A stretch of 64,000 nt of DNA, from sequence record PV204681, one strand, 5' to 3'. Position 1 is the stretch's first letter; the number at the start of each line of letters is the position of its first letter. The notes under the pieces are model-generated. The model worked only from the letters and a program-made list of their open reading frames with translations. It was not told the DNA's origin and searched no databases. The translations under genes were made by a program, and so were the position numbers. Source of the DNA: Escherichia phage vB_EcoM_JQD51. Positions 36,410-64,000 of the stretch are shown here, one piece after another.

Positions 36410-37510
36410 TTACGCTGTGAAGATTTTATCCCACATCGCAACAACTGCATCTCGGTTATACTTCTTCCATACTGCTTCAGCACGTTTAACTCGAGCTTCG
36501 TATGTGTCAGTGAATTCTAATACAGCTTTTGTGTAAAGCGCAACTACTTCTTTCTTAGGAGTAGAGGAATCAATTTCTACACGCACAGTATCTGGGTCGT
36601 ATTCGAATGTCGCATGAGGATAATCCTTAAAAACTAACTGGATTACAGGGACACCTTTAGAGATGGCTTCAATAGAACTATTCTCTACAGTACCTGTGTC
36701 AGGACACGTATTAATAAGCGCTTTAGCTGTTTTAAGACGTTCCATGATTTCACTGTGTGGAGCATCAATAATAACAGGATATTTAGCTGGTGGTGCCCAT
36801 TTACTAGGACAGTATCCTACACCATTTTCGCCTAGTGCTTTAATCGCTTCAAGAGCAACATCAGTACGACGCATTTTAGTGTCATAACGTTGTGCACTAA
36901 TAATCAGATCAGTCGCCGGAAGAACTTCATGTTTCTCATTCAAACAAATAACCGGATAATCTTCGGCTTCAAACAACGGATTTGCTCGCCAATAATCATA
37001 ATCAATTTTGTCAGTCAGACCTGAAGTCATATAACAATATTTGCGTTCAAATTCACGGAAGGCTTTAGTAGGAGCATAACTCTTACCACCATTCTTATGA
37101 ATTTGAATAGTCTGGTCCCAAATTTGAACAATGCCACGAGATACTGGTTCAAATGGTGTTGCCATAAAATTCTTATGAACTTTAGAGAGACCTGCGTCTT
37201 TAATTGCCTGAACGGTTAGTTTAGTCGGTTCCATAGTAACAACAAAATCGTATTCATGGATGCCGGCTAGTTCAACAATCTTACGAGCCATAGTATAACT
37301 CATACCTAGACTGAATTTAGTCAGATGACCAACAGGATGATGATTAACTTTCCAATCACCAAATGTGTCATTATCAAAGCCGATATAATCAATATCAGCA
37401 CCGATGGACACAAGATATTTCAACACATTTAAATGTACTGCTTCAAGGCCACCTTGTACACGGTCAGGATTAAATGGGACTGCACGAGATGGGATAAACA
37501 TAACTTTCAT
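36410..37510 (-). CDS. GT-B fold glycosyltransferase (candidate DNA sugar transferase)
   Basis: 366 aa; N-terminal MKVMFIPSRAVPF...GGLEAVHLNVLKYL and C-terminal TGTVENSSIEAISKGVPVIQ resembling the GT4 E-x7-E donor-binding region; occupies the T4 gene 60/mobA slot. Confidence 0.6.
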   Translation of the reverse strand: MKVMFIPSRAVPFNPDRVQGGLEAVHLNVLKYLVSIGADIDYIGFDNDTFGDWKVNHHPVGHLTKFSLGMSYTMARKIVELAGIHEYDFVVTMEPTKLTVQAIKDAGLSKVHKNFMATPFEPVSRGIVQIWDQTIQIHKNGGKSYAPTKAFREFERKYCYMTSGLTDKIDYDYWRANPLFEAEDYPVICLNEKHEVLPATDLIISAQRYDTKMRRTDVALEAIKALGENGVGYCPSKWAPPAKYPVIIDAPHSEIMERLKTAKALINTCPDTGTVENSSIEAISKGVPVIQLVFKDYPHATFEYDPDTVRVEIDSSTPKKEVVALYTKAVLEFTDTYEARVKRAEAVWKKYNRDAVVAMWDKIFTA

Positions 37511-49139: not shown

Positions 49140-49661
49140 TCAGTAACCATTATCCTGGCGTTCAAAGTTGTGTTGGTTTTTCAAGTAGTAAAGTTTAAAG
49201 ATTTCTTCAGCAGAAAGACCCAGACCTTGGAACATGTTCAGAACGAAGTGCAGAATATCAATCATCTCAAATTTAATTTCAAGCTGGTCTTCAGGAGACA
49301 GTTCATCGATACGACGATTACGATATTCAGCATGTTGTGCTTTCCACGGCTTCCATACAGAGCTAGCTGCTTTTTCACCATTGCTCATACCACCAAGTGA
49401 AGTCAACAGTTCACGGAATTCATCGTCAATATAATCTTTCTGATTACGCAGCCAGTCAACAACATCGCCAGCAGTGGCTAATTCATCAGGATGTTTGTTA
49501 TGTTCAGGCTTGTCATTTGCCAGACGAACCTGTAAAGATTTCTGCATATCAAGCATTACCTGCAGAGGGTCTTTATCTTCGTGAATCAGGGCATTAAAAT
49601 AAGCTTCTTCTGCTTTATCAACACCAGAAATAAGTTGTGAACATTCGTTAAAGTGCGCCAT
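49140..49661 (-). CDS. 56: dCTPase/dUTPase gp56 (MazG-like)
   Basis: Track ORF (TTG start) trimmed to MAHFNECSQ with AAGGAA SD; 173 aa. Confidence 0.85.
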   Translation of the reverse strand: MAHFNECSQLISGVDKAEEAYFNALIHEDKDPLQVMLDMQKSLQVRLANDKPEHNKHPDELATAGDVVDWLRNQKDYIDDEFRELLTSLGGMSNGEKAASSVWKPWKAQHAEYRNRRIDELSPEDQLEIKFEMIDILHFVLNMFQGLGLSAEEIFKLYYLKNQHNFERQDNGY

Positions 49662-52702: not shown

Positions 52703-52951
52703 TTATTCTTTTTCGCGAATAATAATTACTTGTTGAGGCTGCTGAGCAGATTTCTTTTCGGCAACGATAGACCAAATTAAAGTTCCAATCCAACCAACCA
52801 TCGTCCAGTTAAAGAGTAAAGATACAAAGAAGATTGCTGTTGTGCTTTTTGTGCCACGAATAAGTGCGATTACCCAAGGCAACATGTAAATGATGATTGA
52901 ACCAATACCTGCGATTAAAACTGCTACTGAACTAGCTACGAATAATTCCAT
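52703..52951 (-). CDS. superinfection-immunity-like membrane protein (Imm family)
   Basis: 82 aa, two TM segments; motif YMLPWVIALIRG...AIFFVSLLFNWTMVGWIGTLIWSI resembles the Imm superinfection-immunity family. Confidence 0.5.
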   Translation of the reverse strand: MELFVASSVAVLIAGIGSIIIYMLPWVIALIRGTKSTTAIFFVSLLFNWTMVGWIGTLIWSIVAEKKSAQQPQQVIIIREKE

Positions 52952-53847: not shown

Positions 53848-54161
53848 ATTTCCTCGCAAAATGCCCATTCAGCGTGATAAACTGTAGCACCTTTAGTATT
53901 ATTCATTTGAACTACGTCTACTGGAGAAATTACTCGATAGAGACGTGGTTCACCTCCATAAGAGCGTGCTGCTCGTCCTGCATAAATCTTTGCTAAACCG
54001 ATATCTTCAGTAAAGAATACACGATCCAAGTTTTTCTTACGTCCAGTTTCAGACAGAACTCCTGTTTCCTCAGGAGGACAAAGCATGTTTTCGATGTTAG
54101 CTGAACTGCTTGAACCGTGATAAAAAATCTTAAATTCTGCTTTACAATCGATGGTTTCCAT
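53844..54161 (-). CDS. hypothetical protein (105 aa)
   Basis: ORF track; GAGGAGA SD; early promoter upstream. Confidence 0.5.
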   Translation of the reverse strand: METIDCKAEFKIFYHGSSSSANIENMLCPPEETGVLSETGRKKNLDRVFFTEDIGLAKIYAGRAARSYGGEPRLYRVISPVDVVQMNNTKGATVYHAEWAFCEEI

Positions 54162-54190
54162 TTTGTTCTCCTCTTGGTTGGTGTAAGTAC

Positions 54191-54220
54191 ATCATATCAT
54201 GCCTAGAGGAAGATGTAAAC
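54191..54220 (-). promoter_or_regulatory. early promoter upstream of ORF 53844..54161
   Basis: Plus strand atcata -N18- gtaaac. Confidence 0.45.
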
Positions 54221-54226
54221 CCCGAA

Positions 54227-54251
54227 AGGAGACCGAAGTCTCCTTTTTATT
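54227..54251. other. stem-loop immediately after gene 41 stop; plus-strand copy followed by T-run
   Basis: aggagac-cgaa-gtctcct then ttttatt on plus strand. Confidence 0.4.
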
Positions 54252-55692
54252 AAAATTTTAACTCATTGGCTAAGCTATCTAGGTCAGCTCGTGTTGCTTT
54301 GGCTTTACCTACGCGTTCCGTACGATTCACCTCTGCCTGACGCATCTGAGCACCTGCGTTTTCATTTACTGTGTTAGGTGTGTTCATGCCTTCTTGCTCA
54401 ATCTCAATCCATTTCTGGTTGCCTTTACGTACGCCCATCAGGAATTTATTCCACTTATTCTTATCACCATAACGTGATTTGATTTGTTTGATAAGTTGTT
54501 GTTCAGCTTGTGCAAGTTCTTCGGTTTCAATTACGGCCAACATGAAATCTGCCGTTGCTGGTAAACCTGCTGATTCTGCAATATCACTCATGTTCATATC
54601 CGAAGCATCCCATGCTGCACGTCCTACTTGAGCGGCAGTCCATAGAACTGTTTCAGATTCTACTGCTAATGCACGAAGTTCTTCTGCGATAGCTTTAACT
54701 AATGTGTAGCTATTTTCAGTGTAAACTCTGATACGACAAGACCCACAAATACCTAAGTAATCAACCATGATTACAGATGGCACAAAGTTCTTCTTAAGTT
54801 TTAACTCATTAAGCAATGCACGGAATGTATTAGCATTAGCTCCACCAGTAGGATACTGTTTAACTACTAAACGTCCTAATGTTGTTTTTGAACGCCATTT
54901 TTCCATCTTGGCTTTATATTCAGCATAAGATACGTTACCATCATCGATATCATCGAGTGATACGTCAAGCATGTTTGCATCTATACGCTTAGCACAAACT
55001 TCTTCAGCCATTTCCATAGAAATATAAAGAACGTTATGACCTGTTTGAAGATAATCCGCTGCAAGTGAACAAAGGCCTAAAGATTTACCAACGTTAACAC
55101 CGGCCATTAAAACGTTTAGTGTACCGGTTTCTGCACCACCTTTAGTAATTTTATTTAGAATGTTTAATTTGAACGGGACCTTACGTGCTTTGTTCAGATA
55201 AGAAAGCCAGCGTGCTTCGTAGTCTTCCATCCAGTCATGTCCAACATAACTATCAAACGAAATTGAAAGTGCTTGACGCATAATATCAGGAATAGCTCCT
55301 ACGTCAGGCATTTTCTTGTTACGTTGTTCTGGAGGTAGTTCAGCATTAGACTGAATCTCAATGATTTTGGATGTAGCATTATACATCGCTTTTTGCTGGA
55401 CATATTTCTCAGTTTCTTTAACCAACCATTCGTGGTCTTCAGGAGTATCAGCCAATTTTTCAATTAGGTCTGAAGTTCCTTTATATTCGGCTTCAGTTAA
55501 AGAACTGTTATCTAAAGCCACCTTTAATGCATTGATAGACGGCATTGCATTATATTCGTTAACGTGGCTCTTTATAATTTTAAAGACATTTTTTGCCGGT
55601 CCACGCTCAAAATACTCAGAATCCATATAAGGCCAGACCTTAGAAAAATAAGCCTGGTCATATACGAGATGAGACAAAATAATTTCTACCAC
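54250..55692 (-). CDS. 41: replicative DNA helicase gp41 (DnaB-like)
   Basis: 480 aa; Walker A MAGVNVGKS; apparent GTG start with AAGGAG SD. Confidence 0.95.
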   Translation of the reverse strand: MVEIILSHLVYDQAYFSKVWPYMDSEYFERGPAKNVFKIIKSHVNEYNAMPSINALKVALDNSSLTEAEYKGTSDLIEKLADTPEDHEWLVKETEKYVQQKAMYNATSKIIEIQSNAELPPEQRNKKMPDVGAIPDIMRQALSISFDSYVGHDWMEDYEARWLSYLNKARKVPFKLNILNKITKGGAETGTLNVLMAGVNVGKSLGLCSLAADYLQTGHNVLYISMEMAEEVCAKRIDANMLDVSLDDIDDGNVSYAEYKAKMEKWRSKTTLGRLVVKQYPTGGANANTFRALLNELKLKKNFVPSVIMVDYLGICGSCRIRVYTENSYTLVKAIAEELRALAVESETVLWTAAQVGRAAWDASDMNMSDIAESAGLPATADFMLAVIETEELAQAEQQLIKQIKSRYGDKNKWNKFLMGVRKGNQKWIEIEQEGMNTPNTVNENAGAQMRQAEVNRTERVGKAKATRADLDSLANELKF

Positions 55693-55701
55693 GATAACTC
55701 C

Positions 55702-56043
55702 TTAAAAGAATTTAAATTTTTTCTTGGTCCGTTCATTAAAAGCTTGTTGTACTTGCATTGTAACACATTTTTCAACATGTGGTGCAAGTTCTGCTTTTCT
55801 GTCCTGGTCAAGAACTGCAAAGTCCATTACGATTTTACCATCAACCCAGTCTAGTTTTGTAATATAGACTATATGATGAGAACCATCTTCAAGCGTAATC
55901 AGAATCTCTTGAATGACATTTTCCATTGCTGAACGGATAATTTTAAGAGATTCATTAAACACTCGTTCTTTGCGAATGTCTTCCCCTTCCGAAGAAGGGG
56001 ATTCATCAACGATTTCTAGATTTAAATCATCGAGATTATTCAT
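55702..56043 (-). CDS. 40: gp40 head vertex assembly chaperone
   Basis: Track ORF trimmed to internal ATG (113 aa); position between uvsX and 41. Confidence 0.55.
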   Translation of the reverse strand: MNNLDDLNLEIVDESPSSEGEDIRKERVFNESLKIIRSAMENVIQEILITLEDGSHHIVYITKLDWVDGKIVMDFAVLDQDRKAELAPHVEKCVTMQVQQAFNERTKKKFKFF

Positions 56044-57208
56044 CGAAATCTTCCATTTCGTCAAGGTCGTTTTCTATATCTGCTGCAGACGGAGCATCAG
56101 AAGTTTTAACCGGAACTTTAGTTGTTGCTTTGCAATTAATAAGGTCGTTAACAGCGTCATCAACTTCTTTAATAGAAGAGATAGCACCTAGTTTATATTT
56201 AGTTTCAATTGCATCTCGGAAAGGTTTGTGTTTAAACAACGGCCCCCAGAATTCTACACAATCGGTAGCTTTAGCACGCCATGATTTCTCTTCACGAATC
56301 ATTTCGCCCGTTTCTTCGTCAAGGAATTCGCGAGCATACCACCCGGCTTTAGGCTTAACTACAAAACCAATTTCAGTTGCCATTTCTAACAAGCCACTGA
56401 ATGGGTCGATACCACCATCGAAATTAACCGTGATCGGGAAAGTAGATTTCTCTTTAACTGTACGAGATTTTTCTGCTTTCAACGTGAAGTCATAACCGGT
56501 CAATTCTGTGCCTTCTTTAACCTGACGTTTAGAGATAAAAAATACCGTGTTAGCAGAATAAAGAATACCTGTGCCACCGCCCATAATCTCTTTAGGATAC
56601 AATCCACCGATTTCCATTGCTGTATGGTTGATTGCAACACATGGAATATCTTTAATAGTCAGATAAGGAGTCACAATGCGGAACAGAGATTTAAGTGCCT
56701 TAGCACGAGACATATCACCTACGACTTTCTCGTTCAATGCATCTTCGGTTTCTTTCTTAGATGCAGTATTACCAATCGAGTCAATAAAGATAATAACTTT
56801 ATCACCGCGTTCAATCGCGTCAAGCTGATTAGTCATATCAACTTTAAGTTGTTCGACAGATTGAATCGGAGTATGAACTACACGGTCTAAATCAACACCC
56901 ATCGAACGAAAATAAGATTCTGAAGCACCAAATTCTGAATCATAGAACAAACAAATTGCATCTTTATATTTCTTCATATATGCTGCAACCATGGTCAGTC
57001 CAAACAACGTTTTAAAGTGTTTAGAAGGAGCAGCAAAAATAGTTAAGCCTGATTGCAACCCGGCATTCAGTGCACCACCTAATGCAATATTCAACATCGG
57101 AATACGAGTAGGGACTTCATCGCGATTATTAAACAACTTAGACTTAGTCAAGTCTGCAGTCATTTTAGAAGTAGAAGCTTTAATCAGACGAGATTTTAAA
57201 TCAGACAT
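56036..57208 (-). CDS. uvsX: UvsX recombinase (RecA-like)
   Basis: 390 aa; MSDLKSRLIKASTSKMTADLTKSKLFN...; RecA-fold ATPase. Confidence 0.95.
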   Translation of the reverse strand: MSDLKSRLIKASTSKMTADLTKSKLFNNRDEVPTRIPMLNIALGGALNAGLQSGLTIFAAPSKHFKTLFGLTMVAAYMKKYKDAICLFYDSEFGASESYFRSMGVDLDRVVHTPIQSVEQLKVDMTNQLDAIERGDKVIIFIDSIGNTASKKETEDALNEKVVGDMSRAKALKSLFRIVTPYLTIKDIPCVAINHTAMEIGGLYPKEIMGGGTGILYSANTVFFISKRQVKEGTELTGYDFTLKAEKSRTVKEKSTFPITVNFDGGIDPFSGLLEMATEIGFVVKPKAGWYAREFLDEETGEMIREEKSWRAKATDCVEFWGPLFKHKPFRDAIETKYKLGAISSIKEVDDAVNDLINCKATTKVPVKTSDAPSAADIENDLDEMEDFDE

Positions 57209-57307
57209 TGTATTTTTCCATAGGCATCATTATATTTTACTCATGTTTAAAAGATAAGACGATTATATACTAAGGGTTATACAGCATTTAAAACTTTAAA
57301 CAGGCTC

Positions 57308-57856
57308 TTAACGAGCCCATTTGATAATTTCTGTAATCAAATAATTACGTTCGCTTGCATTAAATCCTATAACTTTGTTAGCACCGTCATGATTAAGTAA
57401 TTGATACGTTTGGATTTTGTTATGAATTGCAAACTCTTCAAAATATGAAATGACTGTATTAAAACCGAATGAAGACAAAGTAATAAGATCGTCTTCAAAA
57501 CTTTCAGTCATTTCGTTACGTGTTAAAATAATTGTGAACACATCATGGTTTTGGCAAAGACGAACATAATCCTGTTCATAAACGTCAAGAACCGAGTCCG
57601 CATCTTGTCGAATACGTCCATAAACCCAGTTACTAATATATCCACGGTCTAACAGATAAATCTTAGTAGGGTCTAAATAATTCAACATCGTTTCGAAACA
57701 GCCAACTTCATTTCGAGACTTAACATCGAAACGTCCATCAACTGTTCGTTTAGGGAAATCAATCTTTACATATCTTTCACTAATTTCCATTATGTCATTA
57801 ATGAAAGTTGTTTTACCAGCATTATCCGGGCCATCTACTAAAATAATTTTAGCCAT
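57308..57856 (-). CDS. P-loop kinase, thymidylate-kinase-like
   Basis: 182 aa; Walker A GPDNAGKTT; DR(G/Y) motif LLDRGYISNWVYG as in TMPK/dNMP kinases; coupled to upstream gene; sits in the T4 beta-gt slot. Confidence 0.6.
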   Translation of the reverse strand: MAKIILVDGPDNAGKTTFINDIMEISERYVKIDFPKRTVDGRFDVKSRNEVGCFETMLNYLDPTKIYLLDRGYISNWVYGRIRQDADSVLDVYEQDYVRLCQNHDVFTIILTRNEMTESFEDDLITLSSFGFNTVISYFEEFAIHNKIQTYQLLNHDGANKVIGFNASERNYLITEIIKWAR

Positions 57857-57857
57857 T

Positions 57858-58757
57858 TTATTCCTCGATTACGACATCTTCATATTTAGGTATATTATAC
57901 GGCGAAGAAATTAAAGCATTAAAGTAGATGAACTCACCAAGACCTGGATGGAATACTTCTTCAGGATTTTCGAAATATTGAATCTTCGGACGTCCTTTAA
58001 GAATTTGATAGTACTCAGTTTTAGTTGGTTTAAAAATTCGAATCAGCGCTTCTTCAGGATACTTATTTCTGTCGAAGCTATTATTTGGATCGGTTATATA
58101 AAGCGGTTGGCCTAATTGAATTGCACATTCAACCACTTGTTCAAAACGATAGCACGGGTCACTAATTCGAAATGGATGAAAAATACCATCTAGATGAATA
58201 GGAGCCAAATCACCTACAAGACGCTGCATGATGGAAGGACGTATAACTTTCTGGGTTACGATAATCTTATTACCATCGGCACCAGCGTTAACCAGCACTT
58301 CCTTTTGACGTTTATTCAACACAGTAGTTTGAAGTGAACGATTAACCGACAACATATCGGTTTTTAAGAATTCGTCAATATAAAAACGTGGTTTATTAGG
58401 GTCTGCAGTGATATTGAAATTGAATTCCACATCAAAAGCGCCGTCATATCCAGTGATATCTGTGATTAGAAAATCACAATCATAATAATCAATTAATGAA
58501 TCAACCACAAATTCATTTTCAGACCAGAAATATTTACGAGTGTTATATGCGTTATCTTTATACCATAATGGAACAAACTTAAATTCTGGGAAAAGACGTT
58601 CACATTCTTTAATATCAGATGCATTACGTGGATATGTAATCACATCACCCGGATTAGCACGGTGCAAATGAAGTTGGAAGTTGCCATCCTTAAGGATAGC
58701 ATACTGTCCAGTTTCATAAGACCGCATACTCAAGATAGGTACGCGGAAAATAGCCAT
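57858..58757 (-). CDS. hypothetical protein (299 aa), candidate DNA-modification enzyme
   Basis: ORF track; TAATG coupling with gene 42; contains a DCD (DxD-like) motif; family not recognised. Confidence 0.5.
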   Translation of the reverse strand: MAIFRVPILSMRSYETGQYAILKDGNFQLHLHRANPGDVITYPRNASDIKECERLFPEFKFVPLWYKDNAYNTRKYFWSENEFVVDSLIDYYDCDFLITDITGYDGAFDVEFNFNITADPNKPRFYIDEFLKTDMLSVNRSLQTTVLNKRQKEVLVNAGADGNKIIVTQKVIRPSIMQRLVGDLAPIHLDGIFHPFRISDPCYRFEQVVECAIQLGQPLYITDPNNSFDRNKYPEEALIRIFKPTKTEYYQILKGRPKIQYFENPEEVFHPGLGEFIYFNALISSPYNIPKYEDVVIEE

Positions 58758-59473
58758 TAGTCAAGGAATCCTTTAACATAATCAAAATCACGTTCAAACA
58801 CATGGGCACTTACCATGGTATGAGTATAATCACCAACTTCTACACCACATTCGTTAGCGATATAATGAAGTAATTTTCCTTGGAGATAAAAATCCAACTG
58901 CATAACAACAGCACAGTTCTGAGAACGCATATGACAGTGGGTATAAAGCTTACCATCACGAATATAATAAGTCACTGAGTCAGTACATGGATATTCAAGC
59001 GTTTCGTCTGAATCAAGCAAAGCCTGATCAGAACTTTCTAGAATTTGGAACACAACTCTTCGAGAGTTAGGCTTCTCTTTAAGTTCTTTTAGAAGAGCTG
59101 GTAATTGGGCCACAATGCGAGGACCATAGAAAGTGTTGAAGTTCGCCGGCAAAACATCTGATTTTGGTTTAGAAATAAATTTAGCGACATTAGGATATGC
59201 CTTAAACGCTTCTTCTGCGTTGGTACCACCAGAAATCATAAACTTCCAGAAGTCTTCGGCATATTCATAAGAGATGCGGTTAATACGTGGGTCAGTCATT
59301 TTGAATGATGACGGAGTGTCAACAACTACTGTCATAGACCCAATTTCATTACAACGTCCAATACGAGAATCAGTTACGAATTCCGGGTTTTCTAAAATTT
59401 CACGATTGACTGCTTTAAATGCGGTTTGAAAATCTGCGGCTTTGATATATTTCATTGTGTTATGTTTTCCCAT
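58757..59473 (-). CDS. 42: dCMP hydroxymethylase (thymidylate synthase family)
   Basis: 238 aa; catalytic-Cys motif YPCTDSVTYYIRD aligns with T4 gp42 FMCTNTVQYLIRD; Asp in the specificity position (QLD, cf. T4 RND) implies cytosine substrate; GAGGT SD. Confidence 0.8.
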   Translation of the reverse strand: MGKHNTMKYIKAADFQTAFKAVNREILENPEFVTDSRIGRCNEIGSMTVVVDTPSSFKMTDPRINRISYEYAEDFWKFMISGGTNAEEAFKAYPNVAKFISKPKSDVLPANFNTFYGPRIVAQLPALLKELKEKPNSRRVVFQILESSDQALLDSDETLEYPCTDSVTYYIRDGKLYTHCHMRSQNCAVVMQLDFYLQGKLLHYIANECGVEVGDYTHTMVSAHVFERDFDYVKGFLD

Positions 59474-59654
59474 GTTTACCTCAATACAATTTATTATATA
59501 CTCAATTCGTAAAGCTTATTTGAATTTCTTGACAATGTTGATATAACGTAAAGCTTCAGCATCGATACTTCCAAGAACACTATGAAGAAATGCATCAGCG
59601 TAGTATTCCAATTAAACAGGTTCTTTAATCACTTTAGCCGCTTTAGTTTCAAAC

Positions 59655-59675
59655 AGGCCCATCAGGGCCTTTTTA
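59655..59675 (+). other. hairpin plus T-run on plus strand between gene 42 and the U32 gene
   Basis: aggccc-atca-gggcct then tttt. Confidence 0.3.
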
Positions 59676-59751
59676 AGAATTTGTTCGATGCTGTTAATTT
59701 TCATAGTCAAAATCTCTTCGTTAAGTTGGTGGTTAAAAGTTTTTCTAGAAA

Positions 59752-60912
59752 TCATTCTGGGTACCTCAAAGCGTCGTCAGAGTTAGTTATATCAATAATA
59801 GATATAGAATTTTCTGATAACCCATTTTTAGATAACTGACGTTTATAATATCTTTCACAATATGTACACGTCGTCCCGCAGATTTCATTAGCACAATCGA
59901 AATCTGGATGTTTGAACCACCTTTTTTCTAAAAAGCCATCTAACAAAGAGGTTTCAATATTTACCGTATGTGAAAACTCGGTCTCATTTTCAAGAGTGAA
60001 AATGGTCTCTAAAGGCTTCCACAATTCCAACAAATTACCTTCAAACTTTTCAGAAGCATAAGCTTCAAGAACTTTCAAAATGTAGTCTGTGCTACCTGTA
60101 CGTCCTGAAACTTTGAATTGAGTGATACCAATATCATTATAAAGTTTCAAATCTTGAGGACGAACAAAACGAGTTCTCAACCAGTTAAATGGGTCTGTAT
60201 CACGAGCTTTAATACAGTGCTGCATTGGATACCCATTTAAGGATTTGGCATCATCTACTGTAACATCGGTGCTATGGAAAATATAGCAAGAGTCACGATA
60301 ACTACAATGTGTTGTATACCCTTTACCAGCATTAGAACAGAACTCATTTACAAGAACTTCAAATATTATATTGTTCTTATTACAAAACTCTGCTGCACGC
60401 TTCAGGAAAGAAACTGAACGGTTCTTATGAATTCCGCAGCAGACCTTTTTGATATTATATTGGTCATGCAAGTATTTGATTTGAGTTACAGCATCGACAT
60501 GTAGAATTGTTGAAACTTCAATCTCAATGTCTTTATTGACTTCACGAACAATTTCCATAACAACAGGGTTAGCGATAGTAATACGCCATACGCCTATTGA
60601 CCAAAGATACTGAACATAATCCTGAATAGCTTTCTTCTTCCACTCAACTAGTTCTCTTTTTGAACCAGGATTTATCGTGTTGAGTGTATAGTTAAAGCAA
60701 ATACCTAATTCGTTACAACGTTTAACGTAATCTTCTAACATCTTTTTGTCAACGTCAGGAAGCCTAAAATCAGGTCTGGCTGCTACAAAAGCCATTTCTC
60801 TGGTAGAGCCGTATACTTCGTTTATCAAGCTATTAGGATAAGTTTTATTGAGCTCTACGATTTTATCAAGAAGAGCTAAATCAAAATTCGTTCCGATTTT
60901 AAAGGTATTCAT
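59752..60912 (-). CDS. peptidase U32 family protein (prephenate-dependent hydroxylase family)
   Basis: 386 aa; blocks ANPVVMEIVRE, EIEVSTILHV, Cys-rich EVLVNEFCSNAGKGYTTHCSYRDSC and FKVSGRTGS align with remembered U32 proteins (YegQ/RlhA: DPGLIMLVRE, EIFVHGALCMAYSGRC, LKIEGRTKS). Confidence 0.6.
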   Translation of the reverse strand: MNTFKIGTNFDLALLDKIVELNKTYPNSLINEVYGSTREMAFVAARPDFRLPDVDKKMLEDYVKRCNELGICFNYTLNTINPGSKRELVEWKKKAIQDYVQYLWSIGVWRITIANPVVMEIVREVNKDIEIEVSTILHVDAVTQIKYLHDQYNIKKVCCGIHKNRSVSFLKRAAEFCNKNNIIFEVLVNEFCSNAGKGYTTHCSYRDSCYIFHSTDVTVDDAKSLNGYPMQHCIKARDTDPFNWLRTRFVRPQDLKLYNDIGITQFKVSGRTGSTDYILKVLEAYASEKFEGNLLELWKPLETIFTLENETEFSHTVNIETSLLDGFLEKRWFKHPDFDCANEICGTTCTYCERYYKRQLSKNGLSENSISIIDITNSDDALRYPE

Positions 60913-60966
60913 TTTTGCATCTCGCGTTAATTGTTGCGATGGTTTTTGCAGGTCTTACTTAAATTA

Positions 60967-61368
60967 TTATAGATTCGGTTTATATGATTTAAATGTTTCG
61001 AATTCGCCTTTATTCATAAGAGCTTTGAATTCGTCAGGACGCATAGCTTTGTCGTCGATAATCCAATCATATACTGGTTTATGTGTTAGCAAATTATGGT
61101 ACTTCAATCCAATGTTTGCCAAGTTCTGAATCAGACTTGGGAGAATGTCAATTGCTATACGACCAGGACCGACTGACTTCATACCGCGAGCAGTGTAAAG
61201 CGTTATTGTATGCCCTGCATCATATAGGGCATTAATGGCAGACACCATTTCGACGTCTGGTTTGAAGTTCACGTAATCACGATTGTTATTCCATTCCGTG
61301 ATGCAATCATCGACATCAAAACAAAGATTAAGCATGTTTTTTACACGGTGCATTAGATTCGTTCCCAT
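60967..61368 (-). CDS. HAD-superfamily phosphatase (small)
   Basis: 133 aa; motif I FDVDDCIT (DxDx[T/V]), motif II LYTARG, motif III/IV K...IIDDKA; start may be the ATG at 61353 (TAATG overlap). Confidence 0.6.
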   Translation of the reverse strand: MGTNLMHRVKNMLNLCFDVDDCITEWNNNRDYVNFKPDVEMVSAINALYDAGHTITLYTARGMKSVGPGRIAIDILPSLIQNLANIGLKYHNLLTHKPVYDWIIDDKAMRPDEFKALMNKGEFETFKSYKPNL

Positions 61369-63038
61369 TGATGAGTGATATCGCCACCGATTGGACGATA
61401 AGAAACACCAGTTTCTTTATCAGTTAGTACCCATTTACCAGGATTTTTTGTAATCAGAGTAGCCGTTACAGGTTCTGCTACATCATAACTAATAGAGCCG
61501 TCTTGAAGTACACGGCCCATATTACGTAATTGCTTAGTCAGAAGTTCCATACCTTTATAATATGCGGCTACCGCTTTAAGTGGATTATTCTTGAAATAAC
61601 CACCTAATGCAATCCAGATAATTGCTACAGCCAAATGATGATACTCATTAAACGAACTCATCTTTCCATATTTGTAAACTAATGGATTGATGTTAATAGT
61701 CACATTACAAGTTGTTTCATCAATAGTAAACTGTCCCCAGGTCGGATTAGCATTGAATTCATCATAACCTGAAACAGCATAAAGCACTTTAGCTTCATCA
61801 TACAATTTTGGCCCGTAAATCTTGGTTTCACCAAAATATCCACGAGGGTCGATAAACTTGACTTCACCATTATCAGTAATCATAGTATTACTGAAGTTTG
61901 GGTCACCATGAATAACAGAGTACTGTCCCTGAGAACGGTTATGATAACGAATAAGGTGTTCTAAAGCTTGTTTCAGCATTGGCTTCAGACGCCCAATCTT
62001 AGTGTAGTTCACATGTGTGATTTTACCAAATGAATCAATCAATGGTTGAATACTTTCACAACGATCAATAACTTTAGTATAGAATTCTTTAGTGAAATCA
62101 CGACGAACAGTTTCAGGACTTACAAAATAAGTGTCTGTGCTGAATTTCAGTGCATCTAAAATTGCATCAACAATTTGTGGACGAGCAAGACTTGATTTGG
62201 ATTTAATATATTCAAATGCCGGCTTACCTTTAATGCGTTCCATTTCAAAGTTATTTTCATTAACAGAAACTAGCTGAGGAACTGAATCTGATTTCACTTT
62301 AAGATACCATGAAATCTCATCTTTCTGAAGAGCTCGGCCCTGTTCGGTTAATGCGAATTTAGTTACAGTTTCTTCACCAATTTCAACTGCATTAAAACTA
62401 CGATTAAGTTCACGAACTTCATGAGCTTTTTCAAGTTTAGGCATATCACCTAAATCAATTAGATTCATAAGCTCTGATTTATTGAATGCGCTGCCGTAAA
62501 GGAATTCTACGAAATCACGTCCTTTGCAGTATTCATGAATTTCCTCATCAGTAGAACCCATATAGAATTCCCAGTCTTTGAACTGATAAATTCCTACAAC
62601 ATTACCACCTGTTGAACCTACGTTAGTGATATTTTCACCGTCGAAATTATATCGACATTCGTCGCCCTTAACATAGATTGCGTTAACATTCCAAGACCAT
62701 GAACCAAAATCAGGAATAATATCACACCAGTTAACAATTACATTATGGCCGTCTAAATCTTTGTGCAATTTAGCAAGAGCATAAGCAGAACCATATGCTT
62801 CATCAACTGTACGAATAGTCACATTGAACCCTTCTTGCTCACAATAAGCTCGAACGGTTTCAGCAAATTTTGAATGAACTACTACAATAATTTCATCTGC
62901 GCCAAGGTCAGAATAAATTGTATACAAATTGCTCAGAATAGTGTCTTGTTTATAGTTAACAAGCACCTTAGGAATATGATGTGTTATTGGATACAAACGA
63001 GTTGCCAGTCCAGCACCGAGAATAACAGCTTTTTTCAT
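61353..63038 (-). CDS. bifunctional sugar-1-phosphate nucleotidyltransferase / APH-like anomeric sugar kinase
   Basis: 561 aa; N-terminal KKAVILGAGLATRLYPITHHIPKVLV (RmlA/GalU-type G-x-G-T-R-L-x-P-x-T); C-terminal HGDPNFSN...KFIDPRGYFG (HxDxxxxN catalytic loop and D of Mg site as in ChoK/APH/AmgK); GAGGACC SD. Confidence 0.8.
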   Translation of the reverse strand: MKKAVILGAGLATRLYPITHHIPKVLVNYKQDTILSNLYTIYSDLGADEIIVVVHSKFAETVRAYCEQEGFNVTIRTVDEAYGSAYALAKLHKDLDGHNVIVNWCDIIPDFGSWSWNVNAIYVKGDECRYNFDGENITNVGSTGGNVVGIYQFKDWEFYMGSTDEEIHEYCKGRDFVEFLYGSAFNKSELMNLIDLGDMPKLEKAHEVRELNRSFNAVEIGEETVTKFALTEQGRALQKDEISWYLKVKSDSVPQLVSVNENNFEMERIKGKPAFEYIKSKSSLARPQIVDAILDALKFSTDTYFVSPETVRRDFTKEFYTKVIDRCESIQPLIDSFGKITHVNYTKIGRLKPMLKQALEHLIRYHNRSQGQYSVIHGDPNFSNTMITDNGEVKFIDPRGYFGETKIYGPKLYDEAKVLYAVSGYDEFNANPTWGQFTIDETTCNVTININPLVYKYGKMSSFNEYHHLAVAIIWIALGGYFKNNPLKAVAAYYKGMELLTKQLRNMGRVLQDGSISYDVAEPVTATLITKNPGKWVLTDKETGVSYRPIGGDITHQWERI

Positions 63039-63079
63039 GTTGTGGTCCTCATTGGTAAGTAGGAGTATTGTACACTATT

Positions 63080-63223
63080 CTAGTTAAAGCATTCATACTT
63101 TGCTTGTAGTCCAATCATAATCCATCCAATTACAAGTGTTGGAATCATTACTGGAGCCGTTAAGCTCCAGTAGATAGTCATGACAAGCATCAATAGTAAA
63201 AGTCCTATTGTTATTGCTTTCAT
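63080..63223 (-). CDS. small hydrophobic peptide (47 aa)
   Basis: Hand-read: MKAITIGLLLLMLVMTIYWSLTAPVMIPTLVIGWIMIGLQAKYECFN; ATGA overlap with the isomerase stop. Confidence 0.3.
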   Translation of the reverse strand: MKAITIGLLLLMLVMTIYWSLTAPVMIPTLVIGWIMIGLQAKYECFN

Positions 63224-63855
63224 TGTTCGCCTCGTAACATGGCACCTAGTGCGCCGCCAGGGTGGAACTTAAGGAAGTCATTAGAGGTAAATCCACGCTC
63301 AGACGAAAGGTTGATAGCAAACGTATCGATAAGCGCTAACAACAATGTAGTGGACATAGTCGGAGCCAGAGAATTCTCATCAACCTCTACTGCGATGCCT
63401 GTACAGAAAGAGTAATCAAAAAGGGCTTCATTTTCTTGTGGAATGTCTGGGTTACAATGCAACAGAATCTGTTTGACGTTCGGACGAATCATTTTAAGAT
63501 GCTTAGCCACGCCTATCATTTCTTCAGTTTTACCAGAACGACTAATATGAATCAACACATCATTAGGCGCAATGAATCCTGCATCACCGTGAGAATAATG
63601 CCCAGTGTTCAAGTACATACTCGGGATACCGAGTGAAGCAAATGTCTCAGAAGCTTTAGTTGCAATATTAGCATTCTTACCAACACCTGTAATAATTACT
63701 CGGCTTTCATAATTACTAAGTCCCGGACGTCGAAGAGTTTCTAGAATAGCATTATAACGAGCAGGGTTTTGACTAATTACTTTGGCCATATCGGCCAAAG
63801 AAGAAGATTGTTTTATGATTGCGTTAATAGCGATAGTAATAGGAGTAGTTTTCAT
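63220..63855 (-). CDS. SIS-domain sugar-phosphate isomerase, KdsD/KpsF-type arabinose-5-phosphate isomerase (no CBS domains)
   Basis: 211 aa; TGVGKNANIATKASETFASLGIPSMYLNTGHYSHGDAGFIAPNDVLIHISRSGKTEE aligns with the KdsD SIS core (GxGKSGxIGxKxAATFASTG...HGDLG...SxSGE). Confidence 0.8.
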   Translation of the reverse strand: MKTTPITIAINAIIKQSSSLADMAKVISQNPARYNAILETLRRPGLSNYESRVIITGVGKNANIATKASETFASLGIPSMYLNTGHYSHGDAGFIAPNDVLIHISRSGKTEEMIGVAKHLKMIRPNVKQILLHCNPDIPQENEALFDYSFCTGIAVEVDENSLAPTMSTTLLLALIDTFAINLSSERGFTSNDFLKFHPGGALGAMLRGEQ

Positions 63856-63895
63856 ATTTCTCTCATTTAATTAGTTTACCGTCCATGACATTATA

Positions 63896-64000
63896 TCAAA
63901 AATCGAACATATCGAAAAGAGATGCTTTCTTCTCGTAATCGAGTTTCGCTGCTGATGTGAATCCTTCAAGTGGTTTAATAAATGTCTTCTCAAGGAGAAC
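63896..64000 (-). CDS. 43: DNA polymerase gp43, C-terminal 34 codons (gene continues beyond window end)
   Basis: Hand translation ...VLLEKTFIKPLEGFTSAAKLDYEKKASLFDMFDF*; the terminal KKASLFDMFDF matches the RB69 pol clamp-binding peptide as I remember it. Confidence 0.6.
   Translation of the reverse strand, partial: VLLEKTFIKPLEGFTSAAKLDYEKKASLFDMFDF

Follow-up and report, generated by a model that had tools for sequence, protein, structure and literature searches.

A gene cluster for arabinosylated 5-hydroxycytosine DNA in Escherichia phage vB_EcoM_JQD51 and a candidate oxygen-independent nucleobase hydroxylase of the U32 family

In this study, we analysed the genes between uvsX and gene 43 in a 64,000-nucleotide (nt) stretch of the genome of Escherichia phage vB_EcoM_JQD51 (sequence record PV204681), the whole of which is called the window below. 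The flanking genes are uvsX (56036-57208) and gene 43, the C-terminus of which ends at 63896. The seven open reading frames (ORFs) that an initial annotation of the DNA had placed between them all occur on the minus strand at the coordinates given there; it had overlooked a gp49 homologue and a hydrophobic ORF of 47 amino acids (aa), both small. The features of the cluster, and two genes elsewhere in the window that belong to the same pathway, are as follows.

57308-57856, minus strand: putative nucleotide kinase of the P-loop, thymidylate kinase (TMPK)-like type (RB69 gp45 homologue), 182 aa; Walker A motif GPDNAGKT.
57858-58757, minus strand: predicted GT-B glycosyltransferase (RB69 gp46:47), 299 aa, from its model fold.
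58757-59473, minus strand: thymidylate synthase (TS) homologue, predicted 5-hydroxy-dCMP synthase (RB69 gp48), 238 aa; Pfam Thymidylat_synt 57.8 bits.
59516-59755, minus strand: gp49 homologue, small ORF of 79 aa, recognized by homology, with a nonsense codon inside.
59752-60912, minus strand: U32-family protein, predicted to carry Fe-S (RB69 gp50), 386 aa; Pfam Peptidase_U32 42.4 bits.
60967-61368, minus strand: small HAD-type phosphatase (RB69 gp51, HY126 AfhF type), 133 aa; TIGR01689 and PDB 9iqw.
61353-63038, minus strand: fused nucleotidyltransferase/kinase (RB69 gp52:53, HY126 AfhE type), 561 aa; NTP_transferase 39.1 bits.
63080-63223, minus strand: hydrophobic small ORF, 47 aa, its position kept in relatives.
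63220-63855, minus strand: single-domain SIS protein, predicted arabinose-5-phosphate isomerase (RB69 gp55), 211 aa; SIS 42 bits.
36410-37510, minus strand: proposed second arabinosyltransferase (RB69 ORF003c/gp3 homologue), between rIIA and gene 39.
49140-49661, minus strand: gp56 dCTPase, 97.1% identical to RB69p028.

The nucleotide sequence of the region is 97.8% identical to that of RB69 and 98.8% identical to that of phage S143_2, indicating that the cluster is real and conserved rather than a product of chance; at least 80% of the region is covered by 151 phage records. Sequence comparison revealed the same gene order as in RB69 and HY126, with proteins 97-99% identical. The 299-aa and 561-aa genes are each one intact ORF in the window and two ORFs in the RB69 reference; this agrees with the published view of the RB69 splits as sequencing errors, and the equivalent of the 561-aa gene was corrected to a single ORF by Thomas et al. 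in 2018 (PMC6024577). The corresponding slot of T4 reads uvsX, segA, b-gt, 42, imm, imm.1, 43. The initial annotation had the beta-gt/imm region replaced; imm has been relocated rather than replaced or lost: it lies at 52706-52951, about 4.5 kb off and near gene 61-region genes, and is 100% identical to RB69 imm. A scan of positions 54000-64000 against Rfam gave no match. We hold with high confidence that the region is an RB69-type cluster making arabinosylated 5-hydroxycytosine (5hoC) DNA by the pathway as published. This cluster and its pathway are already known, having been published in 2018 and biochemically settled in 2025-2026, and a proposed role for the U32 protein may be the sole part of our analysis that is new.

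Arabinose on RB69 DNA was found by high-performance anion-exchange chromatography and matrix-assisted laser desorption/ionization mass spectrometry by Thomas et al. (2018), who named the base arabinosyl-5-hydroxymethylcytosine (ara-hmC) and put forward ORF003c, ORF53_52c and ORF055c for the pathway (PMC6024577). The initial annotation had likewise pointed to arabinosyl-hmC in RB69-like phages and taken hmC as the likely acceptor; the arabinose was correct and the hmC was not (PMC13326640, PMC13390438). Nuclear magnetic resonance (NMR) and liquid chromatography-mass spectrometry (LC-MS) have since revealed that RB69 DNA carries mono- and di-arabinosyl 5-hydroxycytosine, the sugar being joined by an ether link (Lee et al., NAR 2026; PMC13326640), and the hmC assignment has been termed erroneous (PMC13390438). 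RB69 gp48 converts deoxycytidine monophosphate (dCMP) to its 5-hydroxy derivative (5hodCMP) with oxygen taken from O2, as demonstrated by 18O2 labelling, and binds flavin mononucleotide (FMN) (PMC13326640).

The TS homologue of the window is 98.7% identical to RB69 gp48 and 97.5% identical to the protein in PDB 9iqc/9ir2/9iqu (6 of 238 residues differ), the 9iqc sequence being exactly that of the HY126 homologue. It matches PF00303 at 57.8 bits (cutoff 24.3), and its C163 aligns with the catalytic C146 of ThyA. Its identity to T4 gp42 is only 25% (E 4e-13), and T4 gp42 structures were absent among the best 60 PDB matches listed for it. Three signature residues are N186 (D169N in ThyA numbering, in MRSQN), D194 (N177D) and E160 (L143E); T4 gp42 retains Asp at the ThyA D169 position (MRSND). 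Neither close homology to gp42 nor Asp at D169, which together characterize T4-type dCMP hydroxymethylases, was thus found, and Asn at this position is the published marker of the 5-hydroxylases (PMC13326640). The product of 58757-59473, which the initial annotation had called gene 42, is predicted from these features to be an FMN- and O2-dependent dCMP C5-hydroxylase and not a dCMP hydroxymethylase. Because 'gene 42' is not a dCMP hydroxymethylase, gp56, alc and denA/B do not imply hmC.

These data bear on an alternative in which the module makes pentosyl-hmC, a T4-type gp42 supplying the base and arabinose-5-phosphate passing through arabinose and arabinose-1-phosphate to NDP-arabinose. It draws on the 2018 chromatography and mass spectrometry, on N177D and L143E, which the TS homologue has in common with hydroxymethylases, and on older step labels that are kept in Table 1 of PMC13326640. 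Set against it are the ether link seen by NMR and LC-MS and the 18O from O2 carried by the 5-hydroxydeoxycytidine (5hodC) of gp48, the D169N substitution and low gp42 identity of the window protein, and the bisphosphate route to the sugar donor that PMC13326640 reports from He et al. For RB69 this alternative is already refuted, and for the window we consider it extremely improbable.

The wider proposal of the initial annotation, a hypermodification module that makes NDP-arabinose from ribulose-5-phosphate and replaces T4 glucosylation, is borne out by family assignments from Pfam, NCBIfam and PDB, and its KdsD-type isomerase, HAD phosphatase and fused nucleotidyltransferase/C1-kinase hold in profile searches. 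The isomerase matches KpsF/GutQ (2e-32) and KdsD (5.9e-31) over the SIS core alone and under the full-length cutoffs: the KpsF/GutQ match scores 112.9 bits against a cutoff of 203.7 and spans only model positions 2-153 of 268, and the SIS domain plus CBS pair of full-length KdsD is not present. Its PDB matches are 3etn (2.8e-25), 5uqi (5.4e-23) and 2xhz (3.4e-19), with the GVGKN and HGD motifs aligned. A GmhA heptose isomerase had been named as the finding that would speak against the module; the profile search gave no GmhA match, so this objection does not arise. We regard the protein as a predicted stand-alone SIS enzyme converting ribulose-5-phosphate to arabinose-5-phosphate.

The 561-aa protein, which is 97% identical to its HY126 counterpart, contains PF00483 NTP_transferase (39.1 bits) at residues 3-99 and a GxGxR motif, and its PDB matches are cytidylyl- and uridylyltransferases. 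Its C-terminal half gave weak sub-cutoff matches to Fructosamin_kin, EcKL and RIO1 at 308-409, with the catalytic-loop motif HGDxxxxN present as HGDPNFSN. It is probably an N-terminal sugar-1-phosphate nucleotidyltransferase fused to a C-terminal arabinose-5-phosphate C1 kinase. The HAD protein is about 99% identical to its HY126 counterpart and to PDB 9iqw (2.8e-87 over 129 residues, one substitution), contains the motif I sequence FDVDDC and matches the capsule-biosynthesis phosphatase family TIGR01689 at 4.2e-13; its true start is probably Met6 (60967-61353), which gives a TAATG overlap with the upstream stop. According to PMC13326640, He et al. (2026) showed that HY126 AfhE converts arabinose-5-phosphate to the 1,5-bisphosphate and later makes UDP-arabinofuranose (UDP-Araf), and that the HAD protein AfhF takes off the 5-phosphate of Araf-1,5-bisphosphate. 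By its similarity to AfhF, the HAD protein of the window would be an Araf-1,5-bisphosphate 5-phosphatase. On that account of He et al., the route runs via the bisphosphate, not via the free arabinose that the initial annotation had drawn.

The 299-aa protein, previously left as unknown, gave no match in Pfam or NCBIfam or in a PDB sequence search. Its AlphaFold2 (AF2) model is of high confidence (pLDDT 94.8), and Foldseek aligned the model with GT-B enzymes such as MshA 3c4q (TMq 0.60-0.62), which is among the top matches, and with 7qsg, 5zer and UDP-GlcNAc 2-epimerases, at probability 1.0 and TMq up to 0.62. A match to MshA has also been published for a homologue (PMC13326640). The model suggests a GT-B fold, and the protein is proposed to be the base-proximal (first) DNA arabinosyltransferase, with putative transfer of Araf to 5hoC. 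Its start codon overlaps the stop codon of the TS homologue (TAATG). Single DLP3 transferases were inactive on 5hoC DNA, and whether the first arabinose is transferred to a mononucleotide or to DNA was left undecided (PMC13326640). The product of 36410-37510 is 99.2% identical over 366 aa to RB69p003; ORF003c has been described as a proposed arabinosyltransferase (PMC6024577) and as beta-arabinosyltransferase 2 (PMC13326640). The TMPK-like kinase matches PHROG 761 'thymidylate kinase' at 5.8e-45 and, marginally and at the P-loop only, TIGR00041; a PDB sequence search gave no match. A homologue has been labelled 'nucleotide kinase' from its fold (PMC13326640 Table 1), and the product of 57308-57856 is likewise a putative nucleotide kinase.

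Taken together, the genes would make up two converging branches. In T4, gp56 converts deoxycytidine triphosphate (dCTP) to dCMP. The dCTPase is given a role in the RB69 pathway too (PMC13326640 Table 1), and in the window it would feed dCMP to the TS homologue for C5 hydroxylation with FMN and O2, after which 5hodCMP would be phosphorylated and incorporated in place of C; these steps have been shown by others with near-identical proteins. For the donor, the SIS isomerase would convert ribulose-5-phosphate to arabinose-5-phosphate, the C-terminal kinase of the 561-aa protein would produce Araf-1,5-bisphosphate, the HAD phosphatase would yield Araf-1-phosphate and the N-terminal nucleotidyltransferase would form UDP-Araf. 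The 299-aa GT-B enzyme would then place the first (alpha) arabinose onto the 5-hydroxyl, a proposal of others that the predicted fold supports here, and the product of 36410-37510 would add the second, beta-linked one, again as proposed by others.

The U32 protein has no step in this scheme; the initial annotation had assigned it correctly to its family and given it no pathway role. It contains PF01136 at 42.4 bits (cutoff 22.4), and its AF2 model (pLDDT 92.9) forms a TIM barrel and has as its top PDB match 5d88 (E 1.7e-7, TM 0.69 on the target), the only solved U32 protein, of unknown function; a PDB sequence search gave no useful match. Similarity to the UbiU model is marginal (E 4.8e-4, 19 bits). 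The characterized U32 enzymes RlhA, which forms 5-hydroxycytidine (ho5C) in rRNA, and TrhP, which forms 5-hydroxyuridine (ho5U) in tRNA, are O2-independent and need prephenate, and UbiU/V act as hydroxylases on ubiquinone precursors; these enzymes take their oxygen from prephenate and require a four-Cys Fe-S site (PMC5727448, PMC6599085, PMC10990095). An alignment of 53 sequences revealed ten invariant Cys in the phage protein. C203-X5-C209 aligns with C169/C176 of UbiU and RlhA and C170/C177 of TrhP, and the other invariant Cys are 158, 177, 192, 233, 340, 345, 349 and 352, including an extra C-terminal CX4CX3CX2C cluster. Among T4-like genera, as far as Shewanella phage Thanatos, U32 keeps 80-87% identity; it is the most conserved cluster protein in every pairwise comparison, and has a ratio of nonsynonymous to synonymous substitution rates (dN/dS) of 0.02-0.03 within the RB69 clade.

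In other T4-like phages, U32 is linked to a source of prephenate. A CM_2 chorismate mutase (CM) scoring above the gathering cutoff adjoins U32 in 9/9 of the non-Mosigvirus T4-like lineages examined (Kanagawavirus, Winklervirus, a Klebsiella phage, Mosugukvirus, Tegunavirus, Bragavirus, Gualtarvirus, Kagamiyamavirus and Thanatos), and Thanatos has the two genes at another site in the cluster, to which they have moved as a pair. Arg, Arg, Lys, Glu, Ser and Gln columns are invariant in the phage proteins, and we take these to be the catalytic residues of EcCM. Of 50,697 phage records only 51-57 have this family, and the annotated neighbours, among the matches listed, are the TS homologue and/or the U32 'peptidase'. 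In Entb_45 and LC53 the genes for U32, CM, TS homologue, glycosyltransferase and kinase are joined by 1-4 nt overlaps. No chorismate mutase is present elsewhere in the window, and the RB69 clade, the window included, appears from gene content to have lost it.

Record counts also connect U32 with the hydroxylase. Among phage records, 221 have U32 and 373 have the TS-type hydroxylase; the surplus of the latter includes 57 Acinetobacter phages, 20 Rhizobium phages and the E. coli Dhakaviruses. Every sampled record with U32 also has a 5hoC hydroxylase, and the counts of the two are equal in phages of Klebsiella (26/26), Proteus (7/7) and Yersinia (6/6). U32 is absent from the arabinosylation cluster of Maestro, an Acinetobacter phage whose host is a strict aerobe, and by the published gene list from that of DLP3, and Acinetobacter is not among the top genera listed for U32 matches. 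A strict rule by which phages of aerobic hosts lack U32 and those of anaerobic hosts have it was considered and rejected: it holds partly, for Acinetobacter and Rhizobium phages, where no U32 was seen, and is broken by the E. coli Dhakaviruses.

These data are relevant to the view that U32 hydroxylates RNA, namely tRNA U34 or rRNA C2501, together with CM where that is present, and so tunes translation during infection, its place in the cluster being incidental. T4-like phages encode tRNAs, which counts for this view, as does the fact that all characterized nucleobase-hydroxylating U32 enzymes act on RNA (PMC5727448, PMC6599085). An incidental location is hard to square with the presence of a 5hoC hydroxylase in every sampled record and the equal genus counts, with the overlapping genes of Entb_45 and LC53, or with the divergent viruses described below, where U32 stands directly 3' of homologues of the 299-aa transferase (GT299) or of a dCMP deaminase gene. 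RlhA (653 aa) and TrhP (453 aa) also have long C-terminal extensions, which the phage protein does not. We regard an RNA substrate as quite unlikely.

Further evidence came from viruses far from T4. Metagenomic and IMG/VR viral contigs, some as long as 466 kb, yielded U32 homologues with 44-58% identity; 32 such loci, representing 25 lineages at 90% U32 identity, were scanned with our own profile hidden Markov models over flanks of 10 kb each side (6-8 kb for six loci). Within these flanks a TS-family gene was found in 0/25 lineages, even at E<=10, in contrast with the T4-like loci, where 15/15 have a TS homologue within 1-1.7 kb of U32. A GT299 homologue lies near U32 in 15/25 lineages, the nucleotidyltransferase/kinase in 10, the TMPK-like kinase, in the form of weak homologues, in 10, the isomerase in 8 and dCMP deaminase in 6. 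Chorismate mutase or 3-deoxy-D-arabino-heptulosonate-7-phosphate (DAHP) synthase, including ORFs that match both, is near U32 in 7/25. Two orders recur, kinase-GT299-U32 and GT299-isomerase-nucleotidyltransferase/kinase-(DAHP synthase/CM)-U32, and these would put U32 in the hydroxylase position of a kinase-transferase-hydroxylase triad. At three loci (L024, L043 and L065) U32 accompanies GT299 and the kinase with no sugar genes in the flanks, and at two others (L004 and L023) it accompanies dCMP deaminase, again with no sugar genes.

Several divergent loci carry other genes of note. A single ORF matching both DAHP synthase and chorismate mutase lies just upstream of U32 in L051 (8411-9433), L053 (7302-8357) and L052; this fusion on viral contigs resembles Bacillus AroA(G) and points to phage-borne shikimate-pathway capacity. 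A U32 neighbour in L007 was considered as a KDO-8-phosphate synthase, which would have given a link to arabinose-5-phosphate, and was rejected on scores (237 bits for DAHP synthase against 63). In L024 (7098-8000, 11073-12179) a weak match to a Tet-associated glycosyltransferase (TAGT) follows U32 with a 4-nt overlap, and the neighbourhood has a dUTPase/DCD gene and a UDP-galactopyranose mutase, with no TS homologue in the flanks; the arrangement recalls the galactofuranose (Galf)-containing glycosyl-5hoC of Rhizobium phage RL38J1. In L005 (8001-15428) and L006, a U32 homologue occurs with NT5C, an NMN-transporter-family protein, a deoxynucleoside kinase, a radical SAM/SPASM protein, a second U32-like protein and a nucleoside 2-deoxyribosyltransferase-like protein on a contig with dockerin and GH43 genes; this may be a cellular or prophage cluster for nucleoside modification or salvage.

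The absence of TS-family genes from these flanks bears on the idea that U32 is an electron-transfer or flavin-reductase partner giving reduced FMN to the TS-type hydroxylase. The TS-type enzyme does require reduced flavin, the roughly ten conserved Cys suggest Fe-S clusters, and the two genes are adjacent in T4-like phages. Yet such a partner would have nothing to reduce within 10 kb in the 25 divergent lineages, RB69 gp48 and DLP3 gp80 yield 5hodC in E. coli without U32 (PMC13326640), and the linkage to prephenate supply would stay unexplained. We consider this role very unlikely.

It is unlikely too, in our judgement, that U32 acts in the sugar branch and serves UDP-arabinose biosynthesis, be it as a reductase, an epimerase or an enzyme of another kind. 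Published tables label it 'sugar or heterocycle reductase' (PMC13326640 Table 1), one BASEL-collection record calls it an 'enzyme involved in UDP-arabinose biosynthesis', and its gene is positioned between the base genes and the sugar genes, with the nucleotidyltransferase/kinase near it in 10 of the 25 divergent lineages. Nevertheless, DLP3 and Maestro are reported to make arabinosyl-5hoC from clusters without U32, the four-step route from ribulose-5-phosphate to UDP-Araf is complete without it, and none of the known U32 enzymes has a sugar substrate. Pentose chemistry offers no role for the linked chorismate mutase and DAHP synthase genes, and sugar genes are absent from the flanks of the five divergent loci named above.

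We think it slightly more probable than not that the U32 protein is a prephenate-dependent, O2-independent nucleobase C5-hydroxylase. This reading draws on its family, its ten Cys, the linkage to CM, the divergent loci free of TS, its conservation and its absence from Maestro and DLP3. In the cluster it would be a second hydroxylase, supplying the same 5-hydroxy acceptor under anaerobic host conditions. In RB69-like and many enterobacterial T4-like phages it would thus be an anaerobic twin of the FMN/O2-dependent 5hodCMP synthase, often with its own chorismate mutase; in many uncultured phages, jumbo phages included, it would be the sole hydroxylase feeding kinase-glycosyltransferase DNA glycosylation.

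Several points weigh against this reading or limit it. The reference motif of U32 oxidases, CX6CX15CX3C, whose four Cys ligate a 4Fe-4S cluster, is only partly matched: the CX5C pair aligns and the canonical third and fourth Cys are missing, though other invariant Cys could serve as ligands in their place, and UbiU and UbiV are likewise off the canonical spacing. To our knowledge, no U32 oxidase has been reconstituted in vitro. Having no chorismate mutase, the phage of the window and the rest of the RB69 clade would have to draw on the PheA/TyrA of the host. Growth on E. coli does not require U32, since E. coli Dhakaviruses (Bp7, for example) carry the TS-type hydroxylase without it. The divergent contigs might have a TS homologue farther than 10 kb from U32, and the published reductase label points elsewhere. 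For the pathway as a whole, the DNA modification of JQD51 itself is predicted from the 97-99% identity to RB69 and HY126. As to precedence, PMC13326640 lists gp50 in one table without discussion, the words chorismate, prephenate and peptidase being absent from its text, and the literature searched gave no paper that connects phage DNA modification with U32 or with chorismate mutase; U32 may be assigned by He et al. (Nat Chem Biol 2026) or Mahler et al. (Cell Host Microbe 2025).

The two small ORFs stand apart from the chemistry. Relative to RB69 and NRG-P0074, the gp49 homologue has a CAA-to-TAA nonsense change at codon 48 (59612-59614), and HY126 gp49 has an independent frameshift. Since 11 of 32 database clusters of the family are truncated and its dN/dS is about 0.24, the gene looks dispensable. 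Its slot adjoins the position that chorismate mutase occupies in other lineages, but identity as a diverged chorismate mutase was rejected: there was no Pfam match at E<=10, hhalign gave a probability of 0.15% against the phage CM profile, and PM2 and TG1 have both genes, the gp49-like ORF sitting between U32 and CM. The 47-aa product of 63080-63223 is strongly hydrophobic (MKAITIGLLLLMLVMTIYWSLTAPVMIPTLVIGWIMIGLQAKYECFN), and its ORF overlaps the isomerase stop by 4 nt. An ORF of 36-48 aa is annotated at this position in seven relatives from several genera (RB69, HY126, NRG-P0074, LC53, PM2, TG1 and EcS1), that of LC53 as 'transmembrane segment(s)', which would place a membrane peptide inside a nucleotide-sugar operon.

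Relatives also differ by homing or putative endonuclease genes, inserted between the nucleotidyltransferase/kinase and HAD genes in NRG-P0074 (L002 7003-7764) and between the HAD gene and U32 in LC53 (L009 4854-5492); no such insertion is present in the window cluster. Public labels for these proteins often mislead: 'phosphoheptose isomerase' is used for the HAD phosphatase, 'dCMP deaminase' or 'GlmU' for the nucleotidyltransferase/kinase, 'dCMP hydroxymethylase' or 'thymidylate synthase' for the hydroxylase, 'peptidase' for U32 and 'RNA polymerase binding protein' for the transferase.

The cluster shows a second, folate-independent route by which T4-like phages obtain a glycosylatable cytosine, one that changes which restriction, CRISPR and glycosylase defences are evaded. 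The published hydroxylase needs O2, yet these phages infect gut Enterobacterales and destroy dCTP. An O2-independent U32 hydroxylase, if real, would resolve this conflict and keep the DNA fully modified in the anoxic gut. It would be the first U32 oxidase acting on DNA precursors and would provide a small soluble substrate for U32 oxidases, and many uncultured phages would be flagged for hydroxypyrimidine-based DNA glycosylation that searches with TS homologues miss. That U32 represents the founding member of a virus-borne family of O2-independent, prephenate-dependent deoxypyrimidine C5-hydroxylases, and one not already published, is a more tentative claim, which we find plausible without counting it as probable.

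Compared with known systems, the cluster parallels T4 hmC glucosylation in its slot between uvsX and gene 43 and in its logic of a dCTPase, a TS-superfamily dCMP-modifying enzyme and then glycosylation. T4 uses folate chemistry to make a 5-hydroxymethyl base and takes its donor, UDP-glucose, from the host, whereas the phage of the window would use flavin and O2 to make a 5-hydroxy base and would make its own donor; the T4 alpha-gt/beta-gt enzymes and the window transferases are unrelated GT-B enzymes. From the RB69/HY126 Afh cluster the window differs at the strain level only, in its intact 299- and 561-aa ORFs relative to the RB69 reference and in the gp49 nonsense codon. The U32 protein shares with RlhA, TrhP and UbiU/UbiV the U32 domain, the predicted TIM barrel, the first two Fe-S Cys and a link to prephenate supply, and its proposed reaction, pyrimidine C5 hydroxylation, is that of RlhA (23S rRNA ho5C2501) and TrhP (tRNA ho5U34). 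It differs from them in its marginal similarity, its Cys spacing and its extra C-terminal Cys cluster, and in a presumed substrate that is a deoxynucleotide or DNA rather than RNA or a quinone. The CM_2 gene beside U32 in other T4-like genera, with none in the window, is of the AroQ (type II) chorismate mutase kind. Pairing an O2-dependent with an O2-independent enzyme for one product would, by analogy, follow TrhO/TrhP and UbiIHF/UbiUV, and T4 itself has both aerobic and anaerobic ribonucleotide reductases, a parallel to the TS/U32 pair.

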